64,000 bases of DNA. Source: Schmidtea polychroa. Its lineage: Eukaryota. Within the stretch, counting starts at the first letter, position 1. Each line of letters starts with the position of its first letter. The notes under the pieces are model-generated. The model was given only the letters and a program-made list of their open reading frames with translations. It was not told where the DNA came from and made no database searches. Shown one piece after another: positions 36,083-56,383 of the stretch. The position numbers and the translations under genes are program-made. The stretch spans positions 71,362,001-71,426,000 of the forward strand of contig CM097888.1 in NCBI GenBank assembly GCA_044892525.1. The letters run 5' to 3'.

Positions 36083-36832
36083 ATGTTGCCAAATTCCAAG
36101 CCCGTTCTTCGACCTTGTTTTTCTTGCTCCGACAAGAATTCAATTATCAAAGAGCTCCAGGCCCAAATTGGCAAGCACAAAAGAAGGATAGATGAGTTAG
36201 AGGGGACATGGTTTAGTCCCACCCAGATGAAGGAGGCTCAGAAGAAGCTGCACCGAAGCGAGCACTGTAGAGACGCGTTGATTTCCGAGAGTCGGGCGCA
36301 GAGGAGCCTGATAAAAGAGCAGTCGGAGGCGCTGCACAAATTGTACGTCCAGGCCGCAACTACAAGGAAGATCGCGAAGATCCCGATTAACGAAGCCAGT
36401 AACCTTTTCCCAGCACATCATGATATCTCTGGCGGGTCTTCTCCTCCAGTCGGAAAGTCCTGCCATGGGTGCGTAGAGACCGAGCTCTCACCTAAAGGAC
36501 CAGAAATCATCTTTACCGGAACCAGTAAAGTGCTACCTGCGATAGCATCCACCTCAGCAGCACCCTCGACCAACCAAACAGCATCGAAGCCAAAGCGTCG
36601 ACAATTATCGAGAGCAGAACGAAAGAAAAAACAGCGGGAACGCATAACCGCCAAACAGAACCAGCAATCGTCGGATCATCCAATCAAAGTCATCAACCCC
36701 CCTGCAGCAATCGATTTAGCACCAGTGATCTCAGGGCGAATCATCTCCGCCGCTGGTGTTACCTGGGAGGAAAACGCCTCTGAGTTTTTCGATTTGGAAG
36801 ATCTATTGGCAGACTCGGAGTGGGAGAAATGA
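36083..36832 (+). CDS. LTR-encoded 249-aa protein (coiled coil, basic NLS-like stretch, acidic C-terminus), 5' LTR copy
   Basis: GC-elevated ORF; acceptor TTTTCTTTTTCACAG| 9 nt before the ATG; AATAAA at 36967-36972; identical copy in the 3' LTR. Confidence 0.75.
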   Translation: MLPNSKPVLRPCFSCSDKNSIIKELQAQIGKHKRRIDELEGTWFSPTQMKEAQKKLHRSEHCRDALISESRAQRSLIKEQSEALHKLYVQAATTRKIAKIPINEASNLFPAHHDISGGSSPPVGKSCHGCVETELSPKGPEIIFTGTSKVLPAIASTSAAPSTNQTASKPKRRQLSRAERKKKQRERITAKQNQQSSDHPIKVINPPAAIDLAPVISGRIISAAGVTWEENASEFFDLEDLLADSEWEK

Positions 36833-37049
36833 GAACTTCCCCGTAAAAAGTCTTCGTTCTCTGAATTGACCTGAACATTGTCTGATAACATTTTACCTTG
36901 TCTCTTTTCCCGTTGTCGTGAACTTTATTGTATAGGTGTTAGATATATTTGTGTGATAATCTTAATAATAAACCATTTTTGTCTGCATACGTTCTTTTTG
37001 TGTTCATCTTAAGACAGTTGAGTTGAAATTGGTAAATGGTATTGAGAGT

Positions 37050-37312
37050 CATAAAATTATGAGGAGCATTAGTCAGTTGGTAAACTCAGCTAGAAATATT
37101 GCGATGGGGCGACGGAATGAGTAGACGTAAGTCCTTCTATCGGCAGTCAGGGTTGGGAAGTCGAGGCCTCAGTAAGGAGTAGTCCGAAGGAGCTGGCTCA
37201 CCTGCTTACTGGCGTCTCGCCGGCATAGCACAGTTCCAACGTGAAGCAATTCACGGGTGCTATGTTGGAGTGTAAGTTATGTACGGGTCCCGCTCGGCGA
37301 TGACCAAATAAA
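37050..37312 (+). promoter_or_regulatory. Putative genomic-RNA promoter/R region with major splice donor and poly(A) signal
   Basis: CATAAAA at 37050; Inr-like TCAGTT at 37073-37078; ATG AGT AGA C|GTAAGT (ATG 37117, donor 37127); AATAAA at 37307-37312. Confidence 0.45.
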
Positions 37313-37403
37313 TGACGGGCGAAATCGAGGTGGGCATTCATCCTCTAGACTAAAGCTGCACTAGAAAGGGGTCATCCGAGTAGTGTACCCGCAACATAAT
37401 TTT

Positions 37404-37421: not shown

Positions 37422-37721
37422 TTAGAGTGAAATTTCCATTGACTAGTGTAAACTGGATAAGGATGTTATTGAGTGAATTTCTGTCGAATAGAGTGAACTC
37501 ACCGGGGATCAGTGATTTCAATGGGTTAGCGAGTGCAAATTGACTAATGCTTATCGAATCTTATTATAAATCACGAATAGAAAATAATAAAATTAAAAAT
37601 ATAAATAAAGCAAATTTAATGATAGAGAAATAAGATAAAAGTAAAATAATGATAACGAGTTAGAAAAGAGAATGTTTGACGAAACGAAGTCATATATTAC
37701 TGAAACATTTTTTTTATAGAC

Positions 37722-38207
37722 ATGACGGAATTCGTAGACCAGATACAACAACTAATCAACTTCATAAACATCGAGAATGACTCCCTTAAAACGCTGACAC
37801 AAAAAAGAGAAAGAATTAACATCATACTACTTCAAGCAATCGGGCAAACACCAGTCGTCCCCAACCACATGTTATTAGCCACAGGACTAAGTCACCCAGA
37901 TGGGAAGGTAAACCCGGAAACCGTGTATCAATGGTATCAAGAGAGATTGAACCACCCAGCATTAAATCTTGATTATCAACGTATAAAAGATCCACTAAAT
38001 ACCATATCAGATACAATCGAGCGGAAAATACAAGAAAAACTGACTCTACTACGAACTTGTCGTGCTTGTAAACTTCGTCCTATTCGCGTACTGTTTTTGC
38101 CGTGTGGACACCTCAGTCACTGCGAAGAATGTGTGAACGATTTAAAACGATGTACGATATGTAGGCATGAAATAAAAGAAACTCATATGGTTTATTATGG
38201 TGAATAA
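37722..38207 (+). CDS. 161-aa protein with a C-terminal IAP/RNF34-type C3HC4 RING, no BIR
   Basis: CRACKLRPIRVLFLPCGHLSHCEECVNDLKRCTICRHEIKETHMVYY; acceptor TTTTTTTTATAG|acATG; AATAAA overlapping the stop. Confidence 0.85.
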   Translation: MTEFVDQIQQLINFINIENDSLKTLTQKRERINIILLQAIGQTPVVPNHMLLATGLSHPDGKVNPETVYQWYQERLNHPALNLDYQRIKDPLNTISDTIERKIQEKLTLLRTCRACKLRPIRVLFLPCGHLSHCEECVNDLKRCTICRHEIKETHMVYYGE

Positions 38208-39170: not shown

Positions 39171-40535
39171 AAGGCCTAGAAAAGCGAGAGATAGCAGTTA
39201 AGCTACAATGAGCTAATATCTGAATTAATAGAGAAAGGGAATATTAAAGCTAGCTAGAAACAAATTGAATGTAATTACGGAAATTTGAGTTTAGAGAGGA
39301 AATAAACGAGCTCGTAGAAAAGATAATAAGATTATAATGAAAAAGGAAAGGGAAGAAGGAAACGAATTAAAGAGATAATGGAAAATAAAGAATAGGCGAA
39401 ACGATGATAATGAGTAAAGAGGAAAGTAACCAACTAATTAAAGGGATCCCAGTGAGGTAGAGAAACTCTACGGAATATTTTTTTTGGTTAAACCGGGAAA
39501 ATGCATTTTATTGGTTCCAGAGTAGAACCGAGCGTAATAATAGTAAATATGAAAAGTAAAATAGCGACAACAGCGCAAAAGGAATAGGAAAACGAAGGGG
39601 GGTAATAAGCAGAGACCGACAACGACCTATTTTTACTATAATTGATAACGAATAGATAATTATTACGACTTGATAGATAATTGTTACTACCCCATATAGA
39701 TAATTTAAAATCGACGAAAAATTCGGGCTGATGGGAGATTATAACCCGCGGAAGTAATTGCATAAAAAATAGGGGAAGCATAAACAGAACCTAAAAGGTG
39801 TCTGTGTTCGAACGTTGTTGAAAGAATGATGAAGTCGTGTAAGCAAATGCAACACGAGATCATTTTTTCATTTTAGATATCAAACCAATCCAGTCAACCA
39901 AGACAATCCAGAACCTGCACAAAAGGAATTCGAAGAAATCGACAATCGACCAAGAATAAATTCATTCAGAACCCGCACCGAGAGACACAACAACCGGAAG
40001 ACTCCAGAACGGAAGAAGATACAGATAGCGACATCTCCAACTTCGAACGAATCATCGATATATTCAACCTCATAATATTAGCAGCCATCTGTCAAGGACT
40101 AGTGAATCTCCTCAGAATCACAGTAGCAGATTCATACAGAATATTTATCGAAGGAAACACAATCAGAACCGAACTCGTCCAATTCAATAGCCGCTAATTA
40201 CCAAGAAGCGTAAGAAAGGAATCACGGATAAACCCAATCTTAGATCTTCAAGTAAGCCAGGAGACGTATTATTTTCAGGAGACGAATTACAACAACTCAA
40301 AAGAGGACGATCTATTAAACAGCAAAGAGGAATATCACAAGGATCAAGAAGAACCAATCAAGTACCTATATTTGATCAAGAAAATCTCGGATACACCCCT
40401 AGTCGATCTCGAAGCAGAGAAAGTCTGTCCGACATCACTAATAGTTTAGCAACGTCAACCGAGGAATTATCAGCCCAAAGTTTAGTCACATCGTTAGACA
40501 ATTTAAAAGAAACAGACGAATCTAGAACACCAATC

Positions 40536-41441
40536 ATGACGAATATCGTAAAAACCGACGAGTATAAAGAGAAGTTCAGAGGAGAACCGTTCAACGGAAA
40601 TGCAAACAAGTTAGCAACGTTCATAACTAATTTTGAAGTTTATATCACTGTATGTGGATGGACACCCGAAGCAATTAGTAAAAGGATGCCGTTGTTTTTG
40701 TGCGATAGCGCATTAGAAGTATATTTAGAAGCTAAAGAGAGAGATACGAAATTAGAAAAGTGGGAAGATATCAAAACATTCCTGAAGAAAACCTTCGGAG
40801 CCAGTAAGCCAATCAACCAGGCGTTGGGCGAACTAGCAAATAGGAAACAAAGAGCAAACGAATCGATAACATTATATGCCAGTGAATTGCGGAGATTAGC
40901 GAAGAAAGCAATGAATGGAAAATTACCCGAAGAAAATCTGATCGGTTATTTCATAGAGGGATTACGCCGAGAAGAAGTAAGGGCCTCAGTAGGTTGTCAA
41001 ATGTGCAAAACATTAGAGGAAGCCATAGATTGGGCTACAAGATGCGAGCTCCACCTTCCAGCTCAAATGAATATTATGCAAGAGGAGGGAAGGATAATGA
41101 CAGCAATAGCGAAAGCGGATAACGGAGATAACAACAATCAAGAACCGAAAATGAATCAATTTATACCAGGAGCGCACCAAATTTTCAAACCACCACAAGG
41201 ACGATCAAATGGGAATAATGGTAATCGTAACAACCCGAATAATGAGAACAATTTTAATAATCGACGAAATATGAACGATAACAAGCAGTGTCGAACATGC
41301 GGTAAACCAGGACACTGGGACAGAGATTGCTATAGAAATTCAAATTGTAATCGTTGCGGACGGCGTGGACATACCGAAAATGTATGCCAATTGAGAGGTT
41401 GTTTTAACTGTGGTCAGCCAGGTCACATCTCCAGAGATTGC
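40536..41441 (+). other. Polyprotein domain: Gag capsid plus three CCHC zinc knuckles (41289-41441)
   Basis: EPFNGNANKLATF..F..Y capsid start; CRTCGKPGHWDRDC, CNRCGRRGHTENVC, CFNCGQPGHISRDC. Confidence 0.9.
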
Positions 41442-44400
41442 CGAGAAAGGGGCCAACAACAACGAGCACCACAGCGAAATAATAATTATATGGCGAATCC
41501 GCAACGACAAAGTAACCCTAGCGAAGGAAAACAAATGAACGTTATGCAGGAAATCTCGCAGATGAAACAGATGATGCAACAAATGATGAGACCAAGACAA
41601 GAACCAGCACCACAACAAACCCAGAACATACGTATGATGAGGAGTACCGAAAATCTCAACAATTATGAAGTGCATCAACATGTACAAGAATGGCAAAGAC
41701 TACAGGCCGAGGAAGAGAGGATAAAACAAGAACGCAACCAACAACGACAAGAACAACCATTGCGAATTAATATGATGAAGTTAGTAAAAGACATGAAAAG
41801 CCAGTATTGCTACAATTACGGGAAAAACCCAAGGGTAGTACCCATGACTGAACCAGAAAAGGTAACAGAAACAACAACGGAAATGAAAACAGAGAATTCA
41901 ACCACGATTTTAAAAGGAAACCAGAGAATTCAGAAAATATTCTGGAAAAAGATAAAAGATAAAATCGAAAAAGAACATAATAAAGCGAAAGCCGAGACAG
42001 AAGATGAAAATAACAAGAGCAAGGAACAAACCAGTCAACTAAACCACCAAATGCTACAAGAATTAGAATCAGAAGAAACAACGATATTCGAAAGAAAGAA
42101 ACTAAAGAGAGTACCAAGGATGAGAAACTTGCAAATCAATATGATGAAAAGGACAAAAGATGTAGCATCGTCAGACGAAGAAGAAGACTATGTAAGTAGT
42201 TTGGGTGGAGAAATACTACAGCTGAATGAAATAAGCGAACCTCCAAAAGGGGAAATCAAAGAGGAAGAAGGCGAAAGCGAGATAACCAGCGAAAGTGAAG
42301 ACGAGGATATCGAAATGAAGTTGAGAAAAGGGAAGGAGGAAGCGATAAAACAAGTAGCGGAAATACTCCCAGTAGTAGTGAGGAACCAAGAGTTCATTGA
42401 CGTAATACCATTCAGGCGATTCGTGCAAAAAGTGATGAAATTGGAAAGAAACGAGAAAGATTTAATACCAAACGAGGAAAAATCAATTATAAAAAAGTAT
42501 ATGGAAAAAATGAAGCAGGCAGATACCACGCGGTATGTCATAAAAATCGGAACGAGCAGAGGACTTGAAAGAATGTGGATAAAAAATACAGTCACCGACG
42601 AACTTTTCGATTGGATACGAGAACATTTGGGAAGTTCGAGAAAGAAAGAATATCTGTATCAATACCAAGGAGAACAGATCAAACCAGATATGCACTTAGT
42701 AGATGCACTAATATGGCCAGGAGAAACGCAAATACTGAAGTTGCATAAAGAAAAACAACCAGCCAACCTGTACGATTGGGCTAAAGATGCCAAGGCAGAA
42801 TATGATTTTAACATCAAATTGAAATTAGAACAAATAAAACAATGTACTCTGAGACGAAACCTGGATAAGCTGATCAAACAAATTCAAGCACAAGTGGAAG
42901 ACAACTGGGATTTACTCATCACCAGACGAGCCCCAGCCATGTACGAACTAATGAGCCGATTGCGAGATACAGAAATGCTCCGGATGAGTGATTGGAGAAC
43001 CATAAATTTAATCCACAAATATGGAAGGTTAAAAGAAACCCAGCCACAGAGGTTGGAAATAACCATATGGTTACCGAACGAAGAAAAACGACGAATAAAA
43101 ATGAGCAATCAGAGTACAGTAGATGACTTGGTATCAAAAATAAACCAAGAGATAACGGAAAAGGTACGTAGCGAAAGTAGTGATGGTATGGTGGATGATG
43201 TAGTCATGATGTACGATAAAATAATATTACGAGCGGAGGACGACACCTCGTTAAGCGAAATGGGTATGTGGGACAATCATCAGATAATCAGGATAGTACC
43301 AATGGATGAATTTCGAACAAGAGATGTAACCTATCAAAAAGAAATACGAGACCGGATGAAAACGTTATATCAAAAATCTACGGAAATAATTAAAATCCAC
43401 CAACAATGGTTAAAAGAAAAGGAACTACAAGGAAAAATCACGAAACTAAGTACCAGATCCTGCAGACGAACCCCATGGGAAAGAGTGTGGAATGCAGAAA
43501 CTAAGGAATGGGAAATCCGGAAAGGAATCTTCGTAGAAACAGACATTGGTGAGACAGAAAGTGAATCGGAGGAAGAAGAAGAGGAACCTCCAGAATATGA
43601 AGAAGAAGTAAGGGAACAGACATCGGATGACGAAAGCGAGACAGATGTCACATCAGAAAGCGAAAATGAAGCGAGACATATTCATGCAATGAGGAAAAAG
43701 GAACGAGAATATGCTGATATGGACGGCGAGGAAGCAATAGAAGCAAGAGAACGAGAAGAGAAAGAAAGATATAAACAATTAGGCGATATCTTAGCAATGG
43801 GAGCGAAAAATCAAAAACGCCAAGTAGTAGCGTTGGCTAACATCATCTTAAAAACATCAGAAAACATCCACAATCTGAGAGGAATGGCAAAGGCAATAGA
43901 GGAATACCGGCAATATAATGAATGGTATCCAGAACAGCTAGAACAAATTATTCGAAAATGGAGAAATCAGGAATGGGCACAAGACACTCAGGAGAGGTAT
44001 CACATCCGAATCAAGTATCCGGACAAGAGCATCGAGGAACTAGAGGTGCATCCAACAACAAAGATTAGAGAATTAAAAAAGAAGTTAGCATATGAAACTC
44101 CATTCCATCTGCAACTGTTCGGAAAATCACTAGACGATAATGCAGACGTCGGAATAACACCCATGAGATTGGAAGAGACAAATGTATTAACAATGGCAGA
44201 AACGTTGGGGAAACCGTTAAAAAGGAAAAGTAAAATTACTAAACTAACAAAAGGCAGTTTGAGTACTCCAAGTCCGAACAAAGCACCAAGTAAATCTAAT
44301 GAAACTGAAGAAGTTGAAGAGATAATCCTGGAAGATAGTGACGATGAACCAGGAGAAAGATCACCGCTATTAGTGAGATGGCCGACAGGAGCCGAAATGT

Positions 44401-47400
44401 GGACTAATAACCAGCCATCAACGAGTTATCAACAACCAACGAAACTGAACATCAAAGAAATCATCGACAATACTACGGAAACCGAAACGGATGAACAATT
44501 CCAGAAGCAAAGAGAACCAACGAAAGTAACACCAGAAGGTCAAACCGATAAAATAATAGATGAATGGAATGAGTGGCTAAAAAATAACGATAGCTCATTA
44601 CCCAGAACGGATAACGAAAGAAATCCGAATTACGAAAATACCAGAGAAGCCGGAACGATGATGGAAAAACGGGCAAAAGGAAGACCTAAGAAACAAGGAG
44701 AAAAGTCTGAGTTTAAAACCAAAGAACAATTAAAGCAAGAACAAGGGCAAGTTCGATTAGAGAAATTGGATAAAATAGTATGGGATCTAAAGGAAGCCCA
44801 ACCAACGATCGAAAGAGGAGAAAAATGGATACGAGAATTGTTAAAAGATATGTTAATAATAACAAACCCACAACTTAGACGCTTGTGGCAACGGAAAGTA
44901 GCCAGTACGGAAGCTAGACAATTATGGCACATCGTTTCGGGGATAATCCCAAAGTTAATCAAAGAGAAAACGAAAACCACCAAAACGGATTGGGATGAAA
45001 CAAAGAGAGTGATTGAACAGCTCACGACGAATGCAAATGATGACGAACATCACCTAGTGGTAATCACGTATTTGATGTATAATTTGATGGGACTAGCTGC
45101 GAGGAAAATACCAAATAAACAATTTGCAAATCATGTGGAAATGACCGTTTCAATCATAGAGAATACTATTGAACCACATATTATCCGTGCCGGAGGATGG
45201 AAAAGACTTATACAAGCGCCACGAAAAAATGAGCAAGAAAGGTCGATGCAAGTTAGATTGAAGAAGTTGTTGAATGAACTAGAATGGGAACTACCCATGA
45301 AAGACCCAGCAAGCCGAAAAGCATCGATAAATTCGTTAATGATGACTATGATGATATGGATGTTGTGCACAAGTGGAGCAACAGGTTTTACCATCTACGA
45401 TTGTGATAATATGATAATGAGAGATAAATACTCGTTGAGAGACATAGAAGAATGCAGACAAGCATCACCCAACAAATTAGACATAGTAAGAACAAAAGTT
45501 ACTTACCATGTATATCAAGAATCAGATTTCATCAGAACGCAAGCAAGGGAATGCGTGGTATCAAAAAAGGTACTCGCATATTACTGTGGACAATATTCGT
45601 ATTCGACTCTTATACTACCTGGTCTGGATAAAGAAATCGTATCAATACAACGAGAGGACTGTAAAGAGCTATTTAGAACCGGAGCGCTAAAAATGCATAA
45701 CGGAGTGACGATTCACGGACAAACTGGAATGATTAAAACCGAAAGCGTTTACGTATCCGGAAAAGTAAAATCATCAGATGGGTCATGTAACGGAGGTACG
45801 TATACGATCCGAGGCGAGGTAATATCGGGAGTAGTAGTGATCGAGTCTTACACGGTCGAATTAAAAGAATACGAAGCGCAATTTGACGCAAATAATTACC
45901 AAATGAAGACCAACCCAGCGTGTAGAGCTACAGAAAACGTATGTAGGACAGGAGTATCAACTATAATCTATGAAGCTAATACCCAAATATGCCGACTCCA
46001 ACTGTTAAAAAGTGCTTTGTTCAATGAAGTAAAAGGAGAAATATATGAGAACGAGAACGACGAGGATGGAAACGACAGAGTGAGAATGCGAAATGGAAAA
46101 CCAATGCCACCATCTCCCAGAGAAAAGAGACTTTCAACGCAGAAGACACCAACAGCATTAATCACAGACGATCCAGATCTAGGTATGAGATTTATCAAAG
46201 AGAAAGAAACCACCAAATGTGACAGTATAGTATATAAAACCAATTACGCAGGCATCTATATGTCGAGACAAATAATCGATAGAGCAGTGGGAAAGATAGC
46301 AACGGAGGACGTAAAACTATACTTATATGCAAATAATAAAATGGATTTTCTATTTCATCGCGGACAAACGACCTTGCAAAAAGTATATTACGATCTGATA
46401 CAAAACGATTGTTCATTGAATAAAGAAATATTGAAAACAAAGCTAGCTATTGCGATAACGCACCCAGATAACACGATGCCATCACTCCCATTACCAGATG
46501 GACACTTTGGTAGAATGGTAGGAGAAGTGATGTACACATACCAGTGTACCAAGACGTATGCACGAATGCCAGAAAAATCCATACTACCCGAAAAGAGATG
46601 TGCAAATGAATTAGAAATCCGTTATAAAGGACAAAATCGATTCGTCCAACCAGTCACTAGAATTATGAATCCAGTGGGTTTCTACCCAAATCTCTTTAAC
46701 TGTTCTAATGCATACGGACCTTTATATGAAAGGCCCGATGGGAAATGGATGATGTTACCGGGAAAAACCATATCCGAGGAGCCCAAGAAATTTGGATTAA
46801 TAGAACTCGCCACAGAGCTGGATTTCAAACCTATAGACGTGTCAAACGGTGGTATGTATTCCCCAGAAGATCTAGAAACAGCACGACTTAACGTACTCTT
46901 CCCAGCCAGACGAGAATCCATTTTGTCAAATATGGTTACAATAACGGGGGGAACAAATTATCAATCAGGCCCGAATTACGAGCTGCTACTATCGCCAGAC
47001 CATTTTCAACAAGCCACATCAAACATGATGAAAGCCATGTGGGGAAGATTCTTAGTTTTTGGACAAATGATGGCCGGGATATTAGGGATCATACTCATAA
47101 TTCAGATAGTCAGAGTAATACTAACACAAATGTTAGCGTGTTTTGATATATACAAGCGAGAAAAGAAAGTAAATTGGAAAATGATAGTAGGCTTTCTACC
47201 ATTTTTAGCTAAAACCATGGTATTACATGGTCACTCAAAAGACATTCATCGGATAAAGCGATTGATTAAAATATTAACAAAGATTAAAGGAACCGACGAG
47301 GAAGTAGGCAGACGATTCCGGAAAGTAATGTACGATGAAGCAACAAGACGACAATTGAAAAAGAATAAGCCAAAATTCTTGGACCGATTTAGAAGCCAAT

Positions 47401-50400
47401 CATCTAACAGCGATAGTGACGACGATGATAACGGGAACGATAAATGTCTATATCCAAACAGAAACCCAAACGAAAAACCAATGGAAACGGCACCATATTG
47501 GGAGAAGGAAAAGACAAATACCTGGATCGCCAATGGAAGCTACATACCACCGGATATCGCGGGACCACAAGCAGCTTTGACCATGACACAAAATATGTAT
47601 CCGCAATTACCAAGTCAACCCGGTATGCATTATATGCCAACACGACGTACCAAAAGTGTAGATCAAGCAGATGACGTAAGAACAATAGCAGCGATGAGTT
47701 TACCTGGAGGTCCAGCAGTAACAGTTATGATTCAAATCAATGGTAAAGAAACCAATGCTATGATAGACACAGGAGCTAATGTATCAGCGATAGCGATTAA
47801 TCAAATTCCCAGTAAACACTGGAAAGATATCGAATCCACAACAATTCACATCATAGCATGTAGTAAAGAAACAGTGGACGTGGTCGGAAGATGGTGGACT
47901 ACATTGAGATACCAGGACAACGAAATTGAAACGTATTTGGCAGTAATACCAAAACTTAGCGTACCATGCATAATCGGAACGGATTTGATGCCAGAATTGT
48001 TAAAAGAAGTCGTAATTGACTTAACAACCATGTGTTTAAAAGACAAAACCGGTAGAATATGCAAAATGAATGTAGTCATCAGATGTCCAGAAAAAATAAT
48101 AGTACCAGCAAAATCGCAGATGATTTGTCAGATAAAAGTGGATACGGGTATGGAAGGAGAAGTTATCTTTGAACCAAGCAAGTCATTTGAAAAGCGACGA
48201 GAATTACCACTCGCAAGAGAAATAATCACAATAAACCAAGAAGGAGTGATACCGCTCAACATCACGAATTTCGAAGAGGAAGACAAAATCATTTATGAGA
48301 ACGAAAAATTAGGAAAATTGACCCCAATGATGGACATAGAATTACCGAAAGTGACCAACGAGATGATCAAAGATGATGAATTATGGACAATAGATAGTAT
48401 GTTGTTGACGAATGATGAAAAGAAAAAATTGCACCGATTGTTGGTAGAATATAAAGATATATTCGCCATCTCAGATTTAGACTTGGGTACATGTGATGTT
48501 ACCTTACATGCAATACCACTCATAGACGAAACCCCAATTGCATTGAGACCATACAAGTTAGCAGAAATGCAGAAAGAAATAGCCGAAACAGAAGTACAAA
48601 AGATGCTAGACGCAAAAGTAATCGAACCAAGTTGCTCACCCTGGCAATTCCCAGTGGTCATGGTAAAAAAGAAAGATGGCACCCAACGATTCTGTATCGA
48701 TTATCGGAAGTTAAACGCAGTAACCAAGAGAGATACCTATCCATTGCCGGACATCAATGAGATGTTATTGATGTTGCAAGGGGCAGCATATTTTACTTCT
48801 TTAGATCTAAAAAGTGGATACTGGCAGATTAAAGTCAAAGATGAGGACAAAGAGAAAACAGCTTTCACGTTGGGACGAGATCTATATCAATTCAGGAAAA
48901 TGCCATTTGGACTGACCAACGCACCAGCATCATTTCAACGGTGTATGAACTTTGTCACCCATGGAATCAAACAATGTATGGTATATATTGATGATTTACT
49001 AATCTATTCAGCGACATTTGAACAACATCTGGAAGATATCCGAAACGTATTTATTAGATTAAGACAGTGGAAACTCAAACTCAAACCATCAAAATGCGAT
49101 TGGGCAAAGGAAAAAGTCACGTTTTTAGGACACATAGTGTCAGCTAAAGGAAAGGAGCCAGATCCAAGAAACATTGAGAAAATAAAAACATGTCCAGCAC
49201 CGAAAACTGTCACCCAAGTTCAGGAATTTCTAGGATTATGCGGATACTATCGCAAATTTATCAAAAATTATGCAGGAATTGCAAAACCAATCCAGGAATT
49301 AGTAAAGAAGGACATTTCGTTCATTTGGGGGAAGGAACAACAAGAGGCGTTCGAAACGCTGAGAGATAAACTAATCGAAGCACCTATCCTCGTACACCCA
49401 GATTTTAAGAAGCCATTTCTATTGGCAACGGATGCAAGCGGGTACGCGGCAGGCGCGATTCTGGGACAATTAGATGATGAAGGAAAAGAGAGAGTAATCG
49501 GGTATTACAGTCGAACATTCAAAAAGCACGAAAAGAACTATTCGGTAACAGAACGGGAAGCATTGGCTATAATACAAGCTATCAAACACTTCCGATACTT
49601 ACTATGGGGACATGAGATATGTATAACCACAGATCATCAACCATTAGTGTGGTTAGGGCAACATAAAGAAGCGTCCAGTAGACTGATGAGATGGGCCATG
49701 CAATTGCAAGAATACTCCCCATTTATAAAATTCAAAGCGGGAAGAGCAAATGCCAACGCCGATTGTATGTCAAGATTTATTTTCCCAGATTTGGTGGATT
49801 CAGAAATGCAACGCATATGCTTAATAGTAGCGGAAGATTTGGATTTCTGTCAACTGCGAAAGGACCAACAAGAGGACGCGGAATTAAAACAAATTATCGA
49901 TTATGTAAAAACCGGAAAGACAGATGTATATGCGAAAGACCAAAAATTAAAAGAACATATGGATAAACACCGACACCGATATATTATAGAGAAAGATTGG
50001 TTGCTGATAATGGATGGGGAAAAACGATTAATGTGTATACCGGAAAACCGACGAAAAGAGTTACTAACGCAATATCACGATGGGAGATTGGGAGGACATA
50101 TGTCATCGAAAAAGACGTTAGCAAGAATGAAACAGAAATATTTTTGGCCTACGTTAACTGAAGATGTAACCGAATGGGTAAAAAATTGTCTAACTTGTGC
50201 AACCAGGAAGAATACTGGATCGAAATGGAAAGCACCTTTAACGCCAATGCCAGTACCAATAGAACCAATGACAATGATATCCATGGACGTAGTTGGTCCA
50301 CTACCAGAGTCAGATAAAGGAAACGTTTACATTCTAGTGATCACAGACTTTCTTACGAAATTCCCAGAAGCATTCGCGATGCCAGACCAAAAAGCTAAAA

Positions 50401-53400
50401 CAATCGCAAAAATTTTGGTAGAAGAGATATGTTGCCGATATGGAACACCAAAACAAATCTTAACCGATCAGGGAACTAATTTTATGAGTGAGATAATGAG
50501 CGAAGTAACAAATTACTTCAAAATAGCAAAACTAAGAACATCTCCATACCACCCTCAAACCAATGGGATGACGGAAAGATTTAATGGAACACTTATACAA
50601 ATGTTATCAAACTACGTCGACCGTCACCAACGAGATTGGGACGAATATATAAACCTATGTCTTATGGCATACAGAATGTCGATTCACGCATCAACGAAAA
50701 TGAGCCCATTCAAATTAATGTACGGAAGAGAGTGTAATATGCCAATGGACCTGGAATACCAACCACCGATATCGCAGTATATGGAGATCGATGATTATGT
50801 TACGAAATTCAAGGAAAGAATGCAAGAGATTTGGGAAACTGCGGGATTAAATATCAAGTTCTACCAGGAAAGTTATAAAGATTTACACGATCGAAAGAAA
50901 AACGTGAAGCAACATACGTTTCAAACAGGTGATTGGGTAATGATAGAAACCCCGGAATTAATTCCAGGAACCACAAAAAAGTTACAACGCAACGGAAAAG
51001 GACCATATGAGATCTTATTCGTAGGCGAAACTAATGTAAGAGTGAAATTGGTAAATAACCCCTTTACCAGGCCAATATACGTAAACGTGGCACGATGCAA
51101 ATCAATTCCAAAAACAGCCACTAGTCAACCAGAAGGCCGTACATTAACCACACGTTCGCAAACCTACAGAATGAACATGATGCAACAACTCGCAGAACCG
51201 ATCACTGGACGATTAGGTATCCAACCATCAGAAGCGGAAAAGATTGTAAAAGAGGTAAAAATTAAAATACCTGGATGGGCAAAAGATCGATTAGATTTCG
51301 AAATATTAGGAGGATTATTGACGATGATCGAGAACTATGCAAATAGAGAAAGGACACACCCATTATTGCGAGTAGTCAAAAGCCAATGGCCAATATTATT
51401 TACCATAACAGATCATTACGGAGACACACCATTACACAAACTCATGAAAGTAGGTAACAACGAGCAAATACTAGAAACAATAGAAGCATTTCACGACTGC
51501 AAGCGATCAACAGAACAAACAAACAACCAAGGTTACACACCATTAATGATAGCCGCAAACAGAGGCAAAACAAAAGACGTTATAACCGCATTACTCGATA
51601 CTGGATCGAAAATAACTACACAAGACCACGAGCGGAAAAACGCTCTATATCATGCTATCGAAGGGAGAAGTACCGAGGCGTTCACGTCATTGATGGAACT
51701 ACTATCATATGAGGACAATCGAGAAGTCGGAAACATGTATGATGGATTATTAACAGCGATCAAAGAGAAACTGACAACAATTACCGGAATATTAATTACA
51801 TGGAGAAATCCAATTCAAAACGATTATATGATCAACGTAAACGAAGCGTTCACGAGAGGAGAGAACACGCTGATGAGAGAAGCTATGAAAGGACATCATT
51901 TATTCGAAATCCCGAATCAATTACTAGAACGAGGGATAAAATTCACAAATCACAAAGATGAACAGTTAACAAAAAAGCGAATCGACACATTCGAAAAATC
52001 ACTATTCCAATTTACTAACCAAGTACGAAATAAATATTGGGAAACGGTAAGTGTGTTATATATGATGGACACAATGAATAACATCCGCGAGAATTACCTG
52101 GATATTATCCAAATACTTACAGCAGAGGAACGAATCAATAATCCAAACGGAAAGAAAACGAAAATAAGGTATGAGAAATCCAGGGAATCAAAGTCAACAA
52201 CGAACCAAACGGTCACAAACAACGTCATCGAAACCAAATCAATGAGTATAGATCAAGAGGCAATAATACGCAAAGCAAAAGAAGTGTTCTTTGAGGAAAT
52301 GCTAGAGCTGCCAGACGAAATAATATTGTCCAAAATAATAAAAGCCGTACACACATACGCAAGAGATCAAACCACGGGTTTAGATATCGGGAAAATCAAA
52401 ACCTTCTTGCCTCGAGCATTTACGATGGTAACAAAGGATTCCAGAACACCTCTACAACAAGCAATACTAGCTGCAAAAGAGAATAGAGCAATAACGATCA
52501 TGAGCATCCTTGGGGAGATGGGCGAGGAAACCAACACGAAAAATGAACAAGGTGAAACCGCCATGATGTATGCAGCTATAACGAAAATACACCCAAAAAC
52601 ACTCCACATCCTACATCAATCAGGATCGAAACTAGACGAAAGGTCCAATGAAGGAAATTCCACCTTGGACTGGGCAACCATACAGCCAAACTTAGAAATG
52701 ATCAGATTTATTTGCAAAAATGCGACAAAGGAAGAAGTTGAAAACATGTGCAAAGACACATCTCAGTTTCAATGGAATACGATACGGAAAAATCTAGAAG
52801 CAATGAAATTATTATTAACCTGGAGAGTACCACAAAATAATAAATATGCGATAAATGTAAACGAATTCTACGAAAACGGAGAAAATGCGATGGTAAAGAA
52901 CACCCTAACTAAGGGGGGGACGCCTAAAATTATTTTAATAGTATTAAATAGAGAAGACCTAAAATTCACGCAAAATCAGAACGAGCAACAACGAATTGGG
53001 AAACATCGTCGCATGCAATTGAGAGAGTTAGTTAAAGAATGGAATAGAAAGAGACATGCTGCAACGGGTAGAAAAGAGTTTGAATTCGAAGCAAAATTAG
53101 CAAGAAACAGAGTGCTAACAGCATATCGCAGATTATTGAACGATATAAATGTCGAGGACGACATTTTAAACGACAGCGGGGGAGATAAAAACGATGACAA
53201 TGACGGAAAAGGCCGAAAGGAGGATAAAGGGAAAAGAGAACCGGAAGAGGATAAACCGGAAAACAAGGATTTGGATACGAAAAGAGAGGGAAACAGGCCG
53301 GGAACCAAGACCAAAGAGGAGGAAAAATCGAATAATGGAAAACAGAGGGTATGCCTACCTTTCACTAACAAAGAAATAGAGACAAATATGATATTAATGA

Positions 53401-54389
53401 TAATTATGCTTACCATGATAGAGTTAGTAACAGCTCAGGGAGGGACGAGAACGATAAAAGAAACCAAAGAAGCGGAGAATCAAGATAGCAAAGAGGATGA
53501 ACTAAAGCAAGAAAAGAAAAAGCAAGCACAAGAGCAGCAGTGGGATTTAAAGGAAGAATGGGACTTAAAGGAAAGGTGCATACTAGGAAGATGCATGTCT
53601 AGAGCGTATCAGAAACTAGTACTGATAAATGAGGACACAGAACCAATAACAGAAGTAAGAATACAAGAAGCATACCGAAATCGAGACGGGAAGAGAATAA
53701 CGAACGTTAAAGGAAAAGAGGTACACCTAGGAAAAGGTGGTGAAGTAGTAATAACGCAGCTCCAACCTAGAAGAGAGCACAAAGTCTGTATTTCAAGATT
53801 AGGACCAGGTGAGAGATGCCATCAATATGTGACGCAGCAGCAGCCGCCGAAAGAATACACGGTTTGTATCTGGAGGAATGAATCAAAAAGAGAATGCCGA
53901 CGATACCCAGGGAAAAGAGGAAAGAAAAGAAAAAACCACGACGAAAAGAACGAAGGAGGAAAGCACAAGAAAACCGGCGAGGAAGCTCAGGACAACTATG
54001 TTTCGGAGGAAGAGATGGAAAAAATACAAAAGATGGCAAAGGAGGGTATGAACGAGGAAATAGCAAGAATACGGGAAATGATGAAAGGAAATGGCAAAAG
54101 AGGAAACGAGAAAGGTATAGAAGCGATATCAACATTAACGAACAAGGAGAAACCAGAGAATATAAGCGTGAAGCAGATGATGTGGATCAGTGGGATAATA
54201 ATAACAGGGGCCTTCCTAATCATAACGGGGGGAACAATAAAAATAATCAAAGATAAACGACATCGCGGAGAACTAGAGATGACCCGAATCAGAAATTTCC
54301 AACATCGAGTGAAACGACCAAGTGATATCAAACAAGAACAGTGGGTGGAGGCCTGGAACGCTCAGCGCCCTCCAAACTCACGTATATAG
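40536..54389 (+). CDS. gag-pol: Single 4617-aa Gag-Env-Pol-accessory polyprotein (frame open from 40191)
   Basis: No stop or frameshift over 13.85 kb; contains CCHC knuckles, DTG protease, YIDD RT, RNase H and HHCC/DDE integrase. Confidence 0.97.
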   Translation: MTNIVKTDEYKEKFRGEPFNGNANKLATFITNFEVYITVCGWTPEAISKRMPLFLCDSALEVYLEAKERDTKLEKWEDIKTFLKKTFGASKPINQALGELANRKQRANESITLYASELRRLAKKAMNGKLPEENLIGYFIEGLRREEVRASVGCQMCKTLEEAIDWATRCELHLPAQMNIMQEEGRIMTAIAKADNGDNNNQEPKMNQFIPGAHQIFKPPQGRSNGNNGNRNNPNNENNFNNRRNMNDNKQCRTCGKPGHWDRDCYRNSNCNRCGRRGHTENVCQLRGCFNCGQPGHISRDCRERGQQQRAPQRNNNYMANPQRQSNPSEGKQMNVMQEISQMKQMMQQMMRPRQEPAPQQTQNIRMMRSTENLNNYEVHQHVQEWQRLQAEEERIKQERNQQRQEQPLRINMMKLVKDMKSQYCYNYGKNPRVVPMTEPEKVTETTTEMKTENSTTILKGNQRIQKIFWKKIKDKIEKEHNKAKAETEDENNKSKEQTSQLNHQMLQELESEETTIFERKKLKRVPRMRNLQINMMKRTKDVASSDEEEDYVSSLGGEILQLNEISEPPKGEIKEEEGESEITSESEDEDIEMKLRKGKEEAIKQVAEILPVVVRNQEFIDVIPFRRFVQKVMKLERNEKDLIPNEEKSIIKKYMEKMKQADTTRYVIKIGTSRGLERMWIKNTVTDELFDWIREHLGSSRKKEYLYQYQGEQIKPDMHLVDALIWPGETQILKLHKEKQPANLYDWAKDAKAEYDFNIKLKLEQIKQCTLRRNLDKLIKQIQAQVEDNWDLLITRRAPAMYELMSRLRDTEMLRMSDWRTINLIHKYGRLKETQPQRLEITIWLPNEEKRRIKMSNQSTVDDLVSKINQEITEKVRSESSDGMVDDVVMMYDKIILRAEDDTSLSEMGMWDNHQIIRIVPMDEFRTRDVTYQKEIRDRMKTLYQKSTEIIKIHQQWLKEKELQGKITKLSTRSCRRTPWERVWNAETKEWEIRKGIFVETDIGETESESEEEEEEPPEYEEEVREQTSDDESETDVTSESENEARHIHAMRKKEREYADMDGEEAIEAREREEKERYKQLGDILAMGAKNQKRQVVALANIILKTSENIHNLRGMAKAIEEYRQYNEWYPEQLEQIIRKWRNQEWAQDTQERYHIRIKYPDKSIEELEVHPTTKIRELKKKLAYETPFHLQLFGKSLDDNADVGITPMRLEETNVLTMAETLGKPLKRKSKITKLTKGSLSTPSPNKAPSKSNETEEVEEIILEDSDDEPGERSPLLVRWPTGAEMWTNNQPSTSYQQPTKLNIKEIIDNTTETETDEQFQKQREPTKVTPEGQTDKIIDEWNEWLKNNDSSLPRTDNERNPNYENTREAGTMMEKRAKGRPKKQGEKSEFKTKEQLKQEQGQVRLEKLDKIVWDLKEAQPTIERGEKWIRELLKDMLIITNPQLRRLWQRKVASTEARQLWHIVSGIIPKLIKEKTKTTKTDWDETKRVIEQLTTNANDDEHHLVVITYLMYNLMGLAARKIPNKQFANHVEMTVSIIENTIEPHIIRAGGWKRLIQAPRKNEQERSMQVRLKKLLNELEWELPMKDPASRKASINSLMMTMMIWMLCTSGATGFTIYDCDNMIMRDKYSLRDIEECRQASPNKLDIVRTKVTYHVYQESDFIRTQARECVVSKKVLAYYCGQYSYSTLILPGLDKEIVSIQREDCKELFRTGALKMHNGVTIHGQTGMIKTESVYVSGKVKSSDGSCNGGTYTIRGEVISGVVVIESYTVELKEYEAQFDANNYQMKTNPACRATENVCRTGVSTIIYEANTQICRLQLLKSALFNEVKGEIYENENDEDGNDRVRMRNGKPMPPSPREKRLSTQKTPTALITDDPDLGMRFIKEKETTKCDSIVYKTNYAGIYMSRQIIDRAVGKIATEDVKLYLYANNKMDFLFHRGQTTLQKVYYDLIQNDCSLNKEILKTKLAIAITHPDNTMPSLPLPDGHFGRMVGEVMYTYQCTKTYARMPEKSILPEKRCANELEIRYKGQNRFVQPVTRIMNPVGFYPNLFNCSNAYGPLYERPDGKWMMLPGKTISEEPKKFGLIELATELDFKPIDVSNGGMYSPEDLETARLNVLFPARRESILSNMVTITGGTNYQSGPNYELLLSPDHFQQATSNMMKAMWGRFLVFGQMMAGILGIILIIQIVRVILTQMLACFDIYKREKKVNWKMIVGFLPFLAKTMVLHGHSKDIHRIKRLIKILTKIKGTDEEVGRRFRKVMYDEATRRQLKKNKPKFLDRFRSQSSNSDSDDDDNGNDKCLYPNRNPNEKPMETAPYWEKEKTNTWIANGSYIPPDIAGPQAALTMTQNMYPQLPSQPGMHYMPTRRTKSVDQADDVRTIAAMSLPGGPAVTVMIQINGKETNAMIDTGANVSAIAINQIPSKHWKDIESTTIHIIACSKETVDVVGRWWTTLRYQDNEIETYLAVIPKLSVPCIIGTDLMPELLKEVVIDLTTMCLKDKTGRICKMNVVIRCPEKIIVPAKSQMICQIKVDTGMEGEVIFEPSKSFEKRRELPLAREIITINQEGVIPLNITNFEEEDKIIYENEKLGKLTPMMDIELPKVTNEMIKDDELWTIDSMLLTNDEKKKLHRLLVEYKDIFAISDLDLGTCDVTLHAIPLIDETPIALRPYKLAEMQKEIAETEVQKMLDAKVIEPSCSPWQFPVVMVKKKDGTQRFCIDYRKLNAVTKRDTYPLPDINEMLLMLQGAAYFTSLDLKSGYWQIKVKDEDKEKTAFTLGRDLYQFRKMPFGLTNAPASFQRCMNFVTHGIKQCMVYIDDLLIYSATFEQHLEDIRNVFIRLRQWKLKLKPSKCDWAKEKVTFLGHIVSAKGKEPDPRNIEKIKTCPAPKTVTQVQEFLGLCGYYRKFIKNYAGIAKPIQELVKKDISFIWGKEQQEAFETLRDKLIEAPILVHPDFKKPFLLATDASGYAAGAILGQLDDEGKERVIGYYSRTFKKHEKNYSVTEREALAIIQAIKHFRYLLWGHEICITTDHQPLVWLGQHKEASSRLMRWAMQLQEYSPFIKFKAGRANANADCMSRFIFPDLVDSEMQRICLIVAEDLDFCQLRKDQQEDAELKQIIDYVKTGKTDVYAKDQKLKEHMDKHRHRYIIEKDWLLIMDGEKRLMCIPENRRKELLTQYHDGRLGGHMSSKKTLARMKQKYFWPTLTEDVTEWVKNCLTCATRKNTGSKWKAPLTPMPVPIEPMTMISMDVVGPLPESDKGNVYILVITDFLTKFPEAFAMPDQKAKTIAKILVEEICCRYGTPKQILTDQGTNFMSEIMSEVTNYFKIAKLRTSPYHPQTNGMTERFNGTLIQMLSNYVDRHQRDWDEYINLCLMAYRMSIHASTKMSPFKLMYGRECNMPMDLEYQPPISQYMEIDDYVTKFKERMQEIWETAGLNIKFYQESYKDLHDRKKNVKQHTFQTGDWVMIETPELIPGTTKKLQRNGKGPYEILFVGETNVRVKLVNNPFTRPIYVNVARCKSIPKTATSQPEGRTLTTRSQTYRMNMMQQLAEPITGRLGIQPSEAEKIVKEVKIKIPGWAKDRLDFEILGGLLTMIENYANRERTHPLLRVVKSQWPILFTITDHYGDTPLHKLMKVGNNEQILETIEAFHDCKRSTEQTNNQGYTPLMIAANRGKTKDVITALLDTGSKITTQDHERKNALYHAIEGRSTEAFTSLMELLSYEDNREVGNMYDGLLTAIKEKLTTITGILITWRNPIQNDYMINVNEAFTRGENTLMREAMKGHHLFEIPNQLLERGIKFTNHKDEQLTKKRIDTFEKSLFQFTNQVRNKYWETVSVLYMMDTMNNIRENYLDIIQILTAEERINNPNGKKTKIRYEKSRESKSTTNQTVTNNVIETKSMSIDQEAIIRKAKEVFFEEMLELPDEIILSKIIKAVHTYARDQTTGLDIGKIKTFLPRAFTMVTKDSRTPLQQAILAAKENRAITIMSILGEMGEETNTKNEQGETAMMYAAITKIHPKTLHILHQSGSKLDERSNEGNSTLDWATIQPNLEMIRFICKNATKEEVENMCKDTSQFQWNTIRKNLEAMKLLLTWRVPQNNKYAINVNEFYENGENAMVKNTLTKGGTPKIILIVLNREDLKFTQNQNEQQRIGKHRRMQLRELVKEWNRKRHAATGRKEFEFEAKLARNRVLTAYRRLLNDINVEDDILNDSGGDKNDDNDGKGRKEDKGKREPEEDKPENKDLDTKREGNRPGTKTKEEEKSNNGKQRVCLPFTNKEIETNMILMIIMLTMIELVTAQGGTRTIKETKEAENQDSKEDELKQEKKKQAQEQQWDLKEEWDLKERCILGRCMSRAYQKLVLINEDTEPITEVRIQEAYRNRDGKRITNVKGKEVHLGKGGEVVITQLQPRREHKVCISRLGPGERCHQYVTQQQPPKEYTVCIWRNESKRECRRYPGKRGKKRKNHDEKNEGGKHKKTGEEAQDNYVSEEEMEKIQKMAKEGMNEEIARIREMMKGNGKRGNEKGIEAISTLTNKEKPENISVKQMMWISGIIITGAFLIITGGTIKIIKDKRHRGELEMTRIRNFQHRVKRPSDIKQEQWVEAWNAQRPPNSRI
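42534..44194 (+). other. Polyprotein domains: three ubiquitin-like domains (~42534-42745, ~43053-43299, ~43998-44194)
   Basis: Patterns parallel ubiquitin's beta-grasp, e.g. IRIKYPDKSIEELEVHPTTKIRELKKKL...LQLFGKSLDD and ITIWLPNEEKRRIKMSNQSTVDDLVSKI...DTSLSEMGM. Confidence 0.65.
44757..45215 (+). other. Polyprotein domain: Bcl-2-like helical bundle
   Basis: IENTIEPHIIRAGGWKRLIQ aligns to Bcl-xL BH2 (LNDHLEPWIQENGGWDTFVE); a degenerate BH1 sits at the expected upstream spacing. Confidence 0.6.
45327..47135 (+). other. Polyprotein domain: envelope glycoprotein (signal peptide, Cys-rich ectodomain, REKR furin site at 46119-46130, TM), chuvirus-like
   Basis: Signal INSLMMTMMIWMLCTSGATG|FTIYDC; motifs YDC..YSLRDIEEC, YCGQYSY, DGSCNGG, C.L.KEILKTKLAIA, GEVMY..QC, GMYS.EDL..LFP; TM at 47049-47135. 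Confidence 0.8.
47718..47990 (+). other. Polyprotein domain: aspartic protease
   Basis: AMIDTGANVSAI (Asp codon at 47766) and IIGTDLM. Confidence 0.92.
48540..49785 (+). other. Polyprotein domains: reverse transcriptase and RNase H
   Basis: SPW.FPVVMVKKKDG..RFCIDYRKLN, LDLKSGYWQI, MPFGLTNAPASFQ, YIDD (48984); TDASG, E.EALA, TDH, NANADCMSR. Confidence 0.97.
50070..51110 (+). other. Polyprotein domain: integrase with GPY/F motif
   Basis: H..RLGGH...CLTC; MDVVGP, TDQG, TERFN (D,D35E); GKGPYEI. Confidence 0.95.
51411..52920 (+). other. Polyprotein domains: two duplicated ankyrin-repeat modules after integrase
   Basis: GDTPLH, GYTPLMIAA, KNALYHAI; RTPLQQAI, GETAMMYAA, GNSTLDWA; both modules end in TWR..N.Y.INVNE....GEN. 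Confidence 0.85.
53388..54249 (+). other. Polyprotein C-terminal module: second signal peptide, FN3-like ectodomain, TM helix
   Basis: MILMIIMLTMIELVTAQ (53388-53438); VVITQLQPRREHKVCIS resembles the FN3 L.P.T.Y motif; TM MMWISGIIITGAFLIITGGTIKII (54177-54249). Confidence 0.55.
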
Positions 54390-54909: not shown

Positions 54910-54994
54910 ACCAAACCTAGCTTAAAATGTAAATAATTGTAAATAAAATATCGAACCTGTATCGATAAGAACTATTTGTACATATAATTATAGA

Positions 54995-56383
54995 ATGGAT
55001 AAACGACAAAGAGAAGAGTTCAGAGAGATTGTCGAGCAAGTCCGAAAATCTACAACGATCAGAATACACAAACATGTTATGTGCGGAATATGTGAAAAGT
55101 TGTTAAAGGAACCTCACCAAACGCAATGTGGATGCAGAGTATGTAAAGAATGTATCAGTGAAGCAATAAAGAATAGACCACAGAGGTGCCCGGTGTGTAA
55201 AGAGACACTAATATCGAGTTTAGAAGACACTAACGAGGATAAAGCCGCAGTGAAAGACATGTTAAACACCAACCTGGGATGCAAAAATGCCCCATGCGAA
55301 TGGAAAGGAGTAATATGGAAGGTAGTACAACATATGGGAGAATGTATGTACAGAATTGGCCAGTGTGAAAGGTGCCATAAAACCATTCGAGCAAGCGAAG
55401 AAAAAGAGCATCAAAGGCAGTGTGAGGAGAGATTAGAAAGATGTGAACACTGTGGAGAAATAGATACGTGGAAAAATCTCACCCTCAAACATCACAATGT
55501 CCAAGAGGAGAGAGTATGTGCAGAGTTCAGTGGGGAATGCCCAAACGGATGTAACCAAGGGGAAATAATGAAGGTGGCACAGCATCTAAGGGAATGTGAA
55601 AAGAAAAGAATGACATGCGTACTAGGCAAATGGGGTTGTCAGAAACTACTACACCGAGGGGAGTTACCACATCATTTAGTAGAAAATGCTTCAACCCACG
55701 CAGAAATGTGGTCGACTGCGTTACAAGAAAGCGAGGAGAAAGTAAAACAAATGGAGATAGAGATAGCATCGTTGAAAGTATTAGTCAAAGAACTACTAGA
55801 AGAAAGGGAAGCGTTCGAAGAAGCCCGAGCAAACATAAAGATGCAAATAAACCGAATAGAAATCAGTAATAATCAGGCCAAGGAGCTACATCAGAAAATA
55901 CGGGAAATAAATCTAAATGAGATAACCCCAACAGCACCCTACATATGGAAGATTACGGGAGTAAAGGAAAGAATACGAAAAGCAAAAACCGGAGAAGAGA
56001 CAAGAATAACAAGTCCTGCATTCCATTCTTGGAAAAATGGGTACAAAATGAAAATGAAGATATATCCCAACGGGGACGGAACCGGATTAGACACACACTT
56101 TTCGATTTTCTTTCTGTTATGTAAAGGAGAATACGACGAAATAATAGAGTGGCCGTTCCAGGCGAAAATCGATATTGCACTAATGAATGACCGAAACATC
56201 CACGAACAAAGCTTCAAGACAACTGGAAACCAAATGTGTTACCAGAGACCTACGGAAGAAGAAGGATCAGCAACAGGAGCACCTACGTTCATCCTACAAC
56301 AAAAAGTAGAAGATATGGCAAGAAAGGGCACGGTGTATATCAAGATGACCGTAAGGAAAGAGGAGAAGGGCAGAACGGAGTAA
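54995..56383 (+). CDS. Intronless full-length TRAF-family protein (RING, TRAF zinc fingers, coiled coil, MATH domain), 462 aa
   Basis: CGIC..LLKEP.QT.CGCRVC..C..CPVC; GC.W.G....H...C; YIWKI...SPAF..GYKM..KIYPNGDG.G..TH.S.FF.L.KGEYD..I.WPF. Confidence 0.93.
   Translation: MDKRQREEFREIVEQVRKSTTIRIHKHVMCGICEKLLKEPHQTQCGCRVCKECISEAIKNRPQRCPVCKETLISSLEDTNEDKAAVKDMLNTNLGCKNAPCEWKGVIWKVVQHMGECMYRIGQCERCHKTIRASEEKEHQRQCEERLERCEHCGEIDTWKNLTLKHHNVQEERVCAEFSGECPNGCNQGEIMKVAQHLRECEKKRMTCVLGKWGCQKLLHRGELPHHLVENASTHAEMWSTALQESEEKVKQMEIEIASLKVLVKELLEEREAFEEARANIKMQINRIEISNNQAKELHQKIREINLNEITPTAPYIWKITGVKERIRKAKTGEETRITSPAFHSWKNGYKMKMKIYPNGDGTGLDTHFSIFFLLCKGEYDEIIEWPFQAKIDIALMNDRNIHEQSFKTTGNQMCYQRPTEEEGSATGAPTFILQQKVEDMARKGTVYIKMTVRKEEKGRTE

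Follow-up and report, generated by a model that had tools for sequence, protein, structure and literature searches.

A giant Ty3/gypsy element of Schmidtea polychroa with a predicted gB-like fusion protein in frame between Gag and Pol

The element and its giant reading frame

We describe a long terminal repeat (LTR) element in a 64,000-nucleotide stretch of the genome of Schmidtea polychroa (GenBank assembly GCA_044892525.1, contig CM097888.1, positions 71,362,001 to 71,426,000 of the forward strand; hereafter the window, numbered from its first letter), and in particular the envelope (Env) gene that it carries in frame between Gag and Pol. The element spans 33250-63587 (30,338 nt), with TG...CA LTR ends; the order of its Pfam domains assigns it to the Ty3/gypsy type, and its length exceeds the 30 kb that marks Burro-type elements. 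Pfam matches, translation and hydropathy give the order within its long stop-free frame as Gag, linker, Env, protease (PR), reverse transcriptase (RT), RNase H (RH), integrase (IN), ankyrin repeats and a second membrane unit. The features on which the argument turns are the following.

33250..37396, + strand: 5' LTR, TG...CA, 4,147 nt, 99.98% identical to the 3' LTR, with a 4-bp target-site duplication ahead of it
40191..54389, + strand: frame of 4,732 codons without a stop, 4,617 aa when counted from its first Met (codon 116, nt 40536)
40689..41444, + strand: Gag capsid domain (aa 167-260; PF03732, E 6.7e-10) and three CCHC zinc knuckles (to aa 418; PF00098, E 8.6e-10)
45327..45389, + strand: predicted internal signal sequence of Env, aa 1713-1733 (hydropathy score KD19 1.27)
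45390..47036, + strand: predicted class III (gB-like) fusion glycoprotein ectodomain, aa 1734-2282 (Pfam, alignment, model, Foldseek)
47067..47123, + strand: Env transmembrane (TM) helix, aa 2293-2311 (KD19 2.53; above 1.6 in 10/10 polyprotein rows)
47169..47225, + strand: second hydrophobic segment, aa 2327-2345, predicted to lie on the cytosolic membrane face (KD19 1.31)
47226..47684, + strand: predicted cytosolic Env tail (~180 residues) up to aa 2499-2502, where the protease may cut (hydropathy, border motif)
47724..50555, + strand: PR, RT, RH and IN, in that order, Ty3/gypsy type (PF00077, PF00078, PF17917, PF17921, PF00665)
59442..63587, + strand: 3' LTR, with the 4-bp target-site duplication directly after it

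Residues are counted from codon 1 at nt 40191, so that aa 1618-2170 counted from Met116 correspond to aa 1733-2285; the three zinc knuckles were counted from the translation. An initial annotation, made from the letters alone, had placed Env at 45327-47684, and this segment is indeed in frame, as codons 1713-2498 of the 4,732. Signal-like stretch, Cys-rich ectodomain, TM helix and a tail of ~180 residues running to the protease all lie where they had been put, the signal being weak. The position of Env between Gag and protease holds as an order; the zinc knuckles, however, lie some 1,300 residues ahead of the signal, and that interval is taken up by other domains.

The novelty that the same annotation implied for the Gag-Env-Pol order does not hold. 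For the Burro elements of planarians, an env that lies between gag and pol and shares their frame was reported in 2019 (PMC6431247), and the order GAG-ENV-POL with an Env of HSV/gB type was published in 2026 for Nematoda, Bryozoa and Platyhelminthes, including six elements from Schmidtea mediterranea, Smed_errantivirus_1-6, whose Env is related to chuvirus glycoproteins (PMC13524379). The layout is real, but elements of this kind were already known to have it, and the finding therefore opens no new class. What the window adds is a young multi-copy family whose Burro-type Env appears gB-like rather than F-like, together with a specific topology that the published accounts searched do not work out.

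With Burro and GYPSM1 of dugesiid planarians the element has in common a length of more than 30 kb with LTRs, one giant frame, three CCHC knuckles in Gag, an env between a candidate Bcl-2-like domain and the protease, ankyrin repeats, and MATH/TRAF and RING cargo; for the ubiquitin-like and Bcl-2-like parts of Burro the window has weak candidates under the Pfam cut-off (PMC6431247). It is not Burro1 proper, whose ORF1 has 4,873 aa with an internal MATH domain and a BIR domain, whereas the window frame has 4,617 aa, its MATH domain lies in a separate downstream open reading frame (ORF), and Pfam finds no BIR match in the seven window ORFs scanned (those inside the LTRs, 5' of 36000 and 3' of 58508, excepted). 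With the gB-type errantiviruses it shares the order, the gB-type fold as predicted here, the flanking signal and TM helix, a variably kept furin site and the multi-copy state; by eye the window Env is none of the six Smed_errantivirus rows, the nearest being Smed_errantivirus_5 at about half identity, and the main text of that account, as far as available, does not mention polyprotein, in-frame, Bcl, ankyrin or fibronectin (PMC13524379).

Identity and predicted fold of Env

Env matches the Pfam family Monjiviricetes_fusion (PF24664) with an E value of 1.1e-69 and 235 bits, against a curated cut-off of 27, and each of the 14 Cys in aa 1734-2282 is shared by at least 90% of the 114 rows aligned. 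A HMMER search across 1.84 billion proteins returned 1,005 relatives, of which the closest are embedded in long proteins (27-41% identity) and the next are stand-alone glycoproteins of 620-720 aa (~21-28%); a protease match lies downstream of the glycoprotein in 9 of 12 long relatives scanned. In a word-indexed search for homologues, which was restricted by length, none of 6,421 candidates passed, a result that weighs neither way. The glycoproteins of chuviruses and other Monjiviricetes have in common with the window Env the protein family, the best structural matches and a TM helix with a second hydrophobic segment, but they stand alone at 620-720 aa behind an N-terminal signal, whereas the window's is embedded in a polyprotein. 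One 1,000-aa protein among the relatives (P0146) carries immunoglobulin domains ahead of a chuvirus-type glycoprotein.

AlphaFold2, run on the 114-row alignment, models the ectodomain with a pLDDT of 88.8, long strands in its N-terminal half and a 48-residue central helix. When the model was compared by Foldseek with the PDB, all 38 matches listed were herpesvirus gB (best E 2.9e-13); against BFVD, the listed match that ranked first was to a chu-related glycoprotein (TM 0.63, E 3.4e-40), and lower down came glycoproteins of xinmovirus, qin-related and rhabdo-like kinds. By sequence, the profile of the alignment matches gB weakly (E 0.002), and a single-sequence search of solved structures with the ectodomain returned no match. 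On its predicted fold, Env is a class III fusogen of chuvirus type, gB-like among solved structures; the chuvirus-type glycoprotein proposed in the initial annotation is thus upheld by the PF24664 match, by the chu-related best viral models and by gB in the PDB.

Other assignments fared less well. An F-type Env (gypsy or baculovirus F, class I) has no F-type Pfam match to its name, and none is named among the 38 PDB and 50 BFVD rows listed (8 of the BFVD rows are nameless). A BEL/Pao carrier was rejected as well, none of the 16 Pfam matches being to a Pao-type family, judged by the families that we take to mark BEL/Pao. In its Gag and Pol domains the carrier is of Ty3/gypsy type, unlike the BEL/Pao elements that have captured chuvirus glycoproteins (Dezordi et al. 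2020, PMC7642597). The available account of Burro likened its env to gypsy Env and F-type fusion proteins and reported mononegavirus glycoprotein matches (PMC6431247), whereas the fold predicted in the window is gB-like.

A glycoprotein phylogeny, which the initial annotation had called for, was built with FastTree from 104 of the 114 rows, 10 partial rows being dropped; the 12 polyprotein-type Env rows form one group with support 98, to be read as a grouping in an unrooted tree of nameless rows. Sequons for N-glycosylation average 1.9 per Env in 10 polyprotein rows versus 3.6 in 93 others.

The furin site that the initial annotation had read as REKR is present, but it is not a conserved feature.

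46119..46130, + strand: furin-type tetrapeptide, aa 1977-1980, in a variable loop; not conserved

The loop is modelled with low confidence (pLDDT 55-67), and R-x-K/R-R occurs there in 2 of 107 aligned rows. Among 19 natural copies of the element, the tetrapeptide is kept in all eight close copies and in one of 11 from a ~90%-identical sister subfamily, the other ten having Lys for the first Arg, which leaves only a dibasic pair. We have accordingly set aside furin cleavage as a defining step: it is possible in the window Env, yet probably not essential to the family. In gB-type Envs, too, the furin site is not always conserved (PMC13524379).

Membrane topology of the Env segment

We judged topology from hydropathy (KD19), charge and conservation, comparing 10 polyprotein rows; two more of the 12 flagged were left out because they covered too little of the second segment. 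Ahead of the first conserved Cys, 10/10 rows have a signal-like stretch at the same position (KD19 1.03-2.19), as the initial annotation's internal signal would have it, with small residues before the mature end in every row; the stretch aligns with the N-terminal signal region of the stand-alone homologues, most of which have 20-35 N-terminal residues there.

The second hydrophobic segment is a different matter from the strong TM helix. Its KD19 exceeds 1.6 in 0/10 polyprotein rows and it holds two charged residues in 10/10; a central Pro is found in all ten, versus 6 of 93 other rows. Basic residues flank it on both sides, the next 20 residues holding a mean of 4.9 K/R in the polyprotein rows and 6 in the window. 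Rough insertion sums run from -0.8 to +2.4 for the TM helix and from +4.7 to +7.2 for the second segment, and in the AlphaFold2 model the helix is interrupted at this point. Between this segment and aa 4396 there is no other helix of strong hydrophobicity. The tail itself has no Pfam match, and the Pfam RVP protease lies downstream of it at aa 2512-2603. If the second segment does not span, tail and Pol would stay cytosolic; one membrane pass after the ectodomain, with Pol on the cytosolic side, is the likely arrangement. This agrees with the lumenal Env and the cytosolic, tethered Pol of the initial annotation. Both outcomes that it had named as fatal to its proposal are absent, in that Foldseek finds structural similarity to viral glycoproteins and the second segment looks non-spanning.

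Genomic copies, a second family and selection

A search of the genome with the N-terminal part of Env gave at least 150 matches at 89-100% identity, and by hand count ~59 of the 150 listed lie within frames that run without a stop for the same 4,732 codons. The many frames of identical length rule out an assembly artefact as the source of the layout, and the family is young. Some copies lie in pairs ~26.2 kb apart (G000:C4:46246682 and 46272863; G000:C2:177689699 and 177715911), a distance of one element minus one LTR, which may reflect tandem elements with a common LTR or assembly duplications. The genome also holds a second, shorter Gag-Env-Pol family (L009, L051-L053; G000:C4:73216601-73226602) with the same order in one 3,334-codon frame. 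Its Env is 35% identical to that of the window, and the L009 Env is by eye nearly identical to the Smed_errantivirus_2 row (PMC13524379), a resemblance that by itself points to a Schmidtea planarian as the host.

Against one sister-subfamily copy, which has a 4,733-codon frame, dN/dS is ~0.04-0.06 in the Env ectodomain, 0.009 in the TM helix and second hydrophobic segment, ~0.03 in the tail, 0.03 in Gag, 0.008 in RT, 0.054 in the linker upstream of Env and ~0.09 in the C-terminal membrane unit; coming from a single pair with near-saturated synonymous sites, these values indicate purifying selection, not exact rates.

A candidate Bcl-2-like domain, the protease border and expression

A candidate Bcl-2-like domain lies ahead of Env in the frame.

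44985..45200, + strand: Bcl-2-like domain (weak; PF00452, E 0.059, under the cut-off)

The match is stronger in the second family (E 0.0023) and similar in one relative (P0016, E 0.055); a Trp motif, presumably BH2-like, is invariant in 4/4 rows, and a single-sequence search of solved structures with this part returned no match. In the window ~45 residues lie between the end of the domain and the Env signal; across the window and the second family the interval is 20-45 residues. With the domain so close ahead of the signal, the signal remnant could serve as its tail anchor.

A border motif recurs in the frame, with eight occurrences versus 2.3 expected for a pattern chosen after viewing the sequence; one copy stops 24 residues short of the catalytic Asp of the protease and another follows the integrase. 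The motif fits self-release of the protease and would provide the candidate cut site at the end of the Env tail. Five relatives (P0001, P0002, P0003, P0004, P0008) have two to four tandem aspartic-protease-like motifs after the Env tail, where the window has one.

The equimolar synthesis that the initial annotation drew from the gene order would follow only if the frame is translated whole from unspliced RNA. Six in-frame Met codons near the start of Env (aa 1703, 1717, 1718, 1720, 1721 and 1724) could start a separate Env-Pol product. The contigs of 4 of 12 runs, three of them merely guessed to be RNA, held no usable splice joints and, being uninformative on strand and level, speak neither for nor against such products.

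A second membrane unit at the end of the frame

The initial annotation missed a second signal and TM unit at the end of the frame, which would add two more membrane crossings.

53376..54248, + strand: second membrane unit, predicted to be of type I, with a signal-like stretch at aa 4396-4416 and a TM helix at aa 4660-4686

The signal-like stretch (KD19 1.78) is followed by ~245 residues, the TM helix (KD19 1.94) and a basic tail that closes the frame. A signal and TM pair after the integrase is also found in the second family (L051:8602-9801) and in the relatives P0001 and P0006, less clearly in P0015. The ESM Atlas offers fibronectin III for the unit of the second family (0.90, 10/10 best matches), which we treat as a lead only; the window's own unit gave no usable match there, Pfam fn3 matches none of the window, the second family, P0001, P0006 and P0015, and the second family's unit had no match in a single-sequence search of solved structures. 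An FN3-like motif, its pattern chosen after looking, is present in 4/4 units and in 1-7% of shuffles, and the lumenal part of the window unit, folded without an alignment, has a pLDDT of 38. A fibronectin-III-like lumenal part is possible. The available account of Burro makes no mention of such a unit (PMC6431247), and we found no description of a post-integrase membrane unit in the literature searched, outside which Sacco et al. 2022, Lee et al. 2026 and Grohme et al. 2018 may treat the unit or the topology; the unit seems unreported.

Discussion

We suggest, with a probability of roughly 0.72, that the segment is the env gene of a Burro-type giant Ty3/gypsy element and encodes a gB-like (class III) fusion protein in frame within Gag-Pol, likely threaded into the endoplasmic reticulum by an internal signal. 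The frame, its domain order, the family match, the conservation, the purifying selection and the many near-identical copies are read directly from the data, and the fold is predicted. In such a scheme, Gag and its cargo domains would be made in the cytosol until the internal signal enters the membrane; signal peptidase would then cut at its end, and the remnant of the signal would hold the Gag-side precursor in the membrane, perhaps serving also as tail anchor for the Bcl-2-like domain that precedes it. The ectodomain would fold in the lumen and one helix would stop transfer, with the kinked second segment lying on the cytosolic face and tail and Pol cytosolic and tethered, until the element's protease cuts the border between tail and protease and frees Pol. 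The second signal, after the integrase, would then insert a further small membrane protein. As both halves would be held at the membrane that bears Env, assembly of the capsid, packaging of Pol and envelopment would be coupled. Flavivirus and hepacivirus polyproteins likewise hold capsid, internal signal, lumenal glycoprotein and cytosolic enzymes in one chain; we draw this as an analogy only, their fusogens being class II and that of the window class III, with no homology implied.

Several points count against this proposal. The window signal is weak and, at KD19 1.27, no more hydrophobic than the second segment (1.31), while hydropathy, charge and conservation are the sole basis of the topology. 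The Foldseek TM-scores of the Env model to gB are modest (0.17-0.41), and the window ectodomain has a single sequon, at aa 2170. The Bcl-2-like domain falls under the Pfam cut-off and is not apparent upstream of Env in several relatives; the border-motif pattern was picked post hoc, and in relatives not every protease has an evident copy ahead of it. As to selection, dN/dS comes from one pair with pS at 0.54-1.0, and three regions were non-computable. Nor have particles, protein or fusion activity been observed.

The same proteins and topology could also be expressed in unequal amounts, with spliced or internally started RNAs yielding extra Gag, or Env-Pol made from its own Met behind what would then be an ordinary N-terminal signal. 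The Met codons at aa 1703-1724 would permit this, capsids require more Gag than Pol, and single-frame LTR elements are known to reach a Gag excess by splicing (copia) or by Pol degradation (Tf1). Yet no stop interrupts the frame at the signal, either in two families whose Envs are 35% identical or in metagenomic relatives, and the linker upstream of Env is itself under purifying selection (dN/dS 0.054), so that we regard this route as rather unlikely. A slimmer chance goes to the possibility that no free infectious particles form and that Env is retained for passage from cell to cell, for fusing cells or for anchoring assembly at the membrane. Particles of such elements are not known from the available parts of the literature searched, and the unconserved furin site and the sparse sequons would agree with this; but a 550-residue ectodomain with all 14 Cys and a dN/dS of 0.04-0.06, compared with 0.03 in Gag, exceeds what an anchor needs, and gB-type Envs do not always have a furin site (PMC13524379).

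It would be most surprising if the second hydrophobic segment spanned the membrane, which would place tail and Pol in the lumen in the full polyprotein and require a working Pol from another product. The segment is conserved across the family, its KD19 exceeds 1.6 in 6 of 93 other rows, and in the window its hydropathy equals that of the signal; against this stand the uniformly low scores of the ten polyprotein rows, their central Pro and two charges, the basic flanks on both sides, and the absence before the protease of a later helix that could bring Pol back to the cytosol.

Building on the in-frame, internally threaded Env that we favor, a bolder picture may be drawn, one that we would sooner doubt than affirm. 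Burro-type elements might be enveloped retroviruses with a two-glycoprotein entry system cut from a single polyprotein with four membrane crossings, comprising a central gB-like fusogen and a terminal fibronectin-III-like attachment or trigger protein, the Env signal serving at the same time as tail anchor for a viral Bcl-2-like protein. If the second unit is a virion protein, one frame of an LTR retrotransposon would supply a two-part entry machine in the style of herpesviruses, and would do so in a tractable animal. A Burro element has been reported, at second hand, to affect planarian stem-cell survival (PMC13465017).

Other features of the element

The remaining domains matched by Pfam lie downstream of the integrase or outside the giant frame.

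37704..38207, + strand: accessory ORF with a C-terminal RING finger (PF13920, E 8.5e-12)
51459..52709, + strand: ankyrin repeats (PF12796, E 1.3e-15)
54947..56383, + strand: accessory TRAF-like ORF with RING and MATH domains (PF21355, E 3e-25)

Within the frame, the linker between Gag and Env (42468-44240) holds by eye up to three ubiquitin-like stretches, the third alone with a weak Pfam match (E 0.006, under the cut-off), and the 150-aa spacer between PR and RT, where a dUTPase-like domain was looked for, has no Pfam match. Four further same-strand ORFs are without a Pfam match (36050-36832, 54523-54909, 56527-57633 and 57747-58508); the first of these sits within the LTR, and the last two are by eye rich in coiled coil. 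Directly 3' of the 5' LTR, a stretch at 37397-37420 resembles a primer-binding site of the tRNA-Pro type. A 74-nt tandem repeat (38771-39171; 5.4 copies, 99% matches) lies between the RING ORF and gag.

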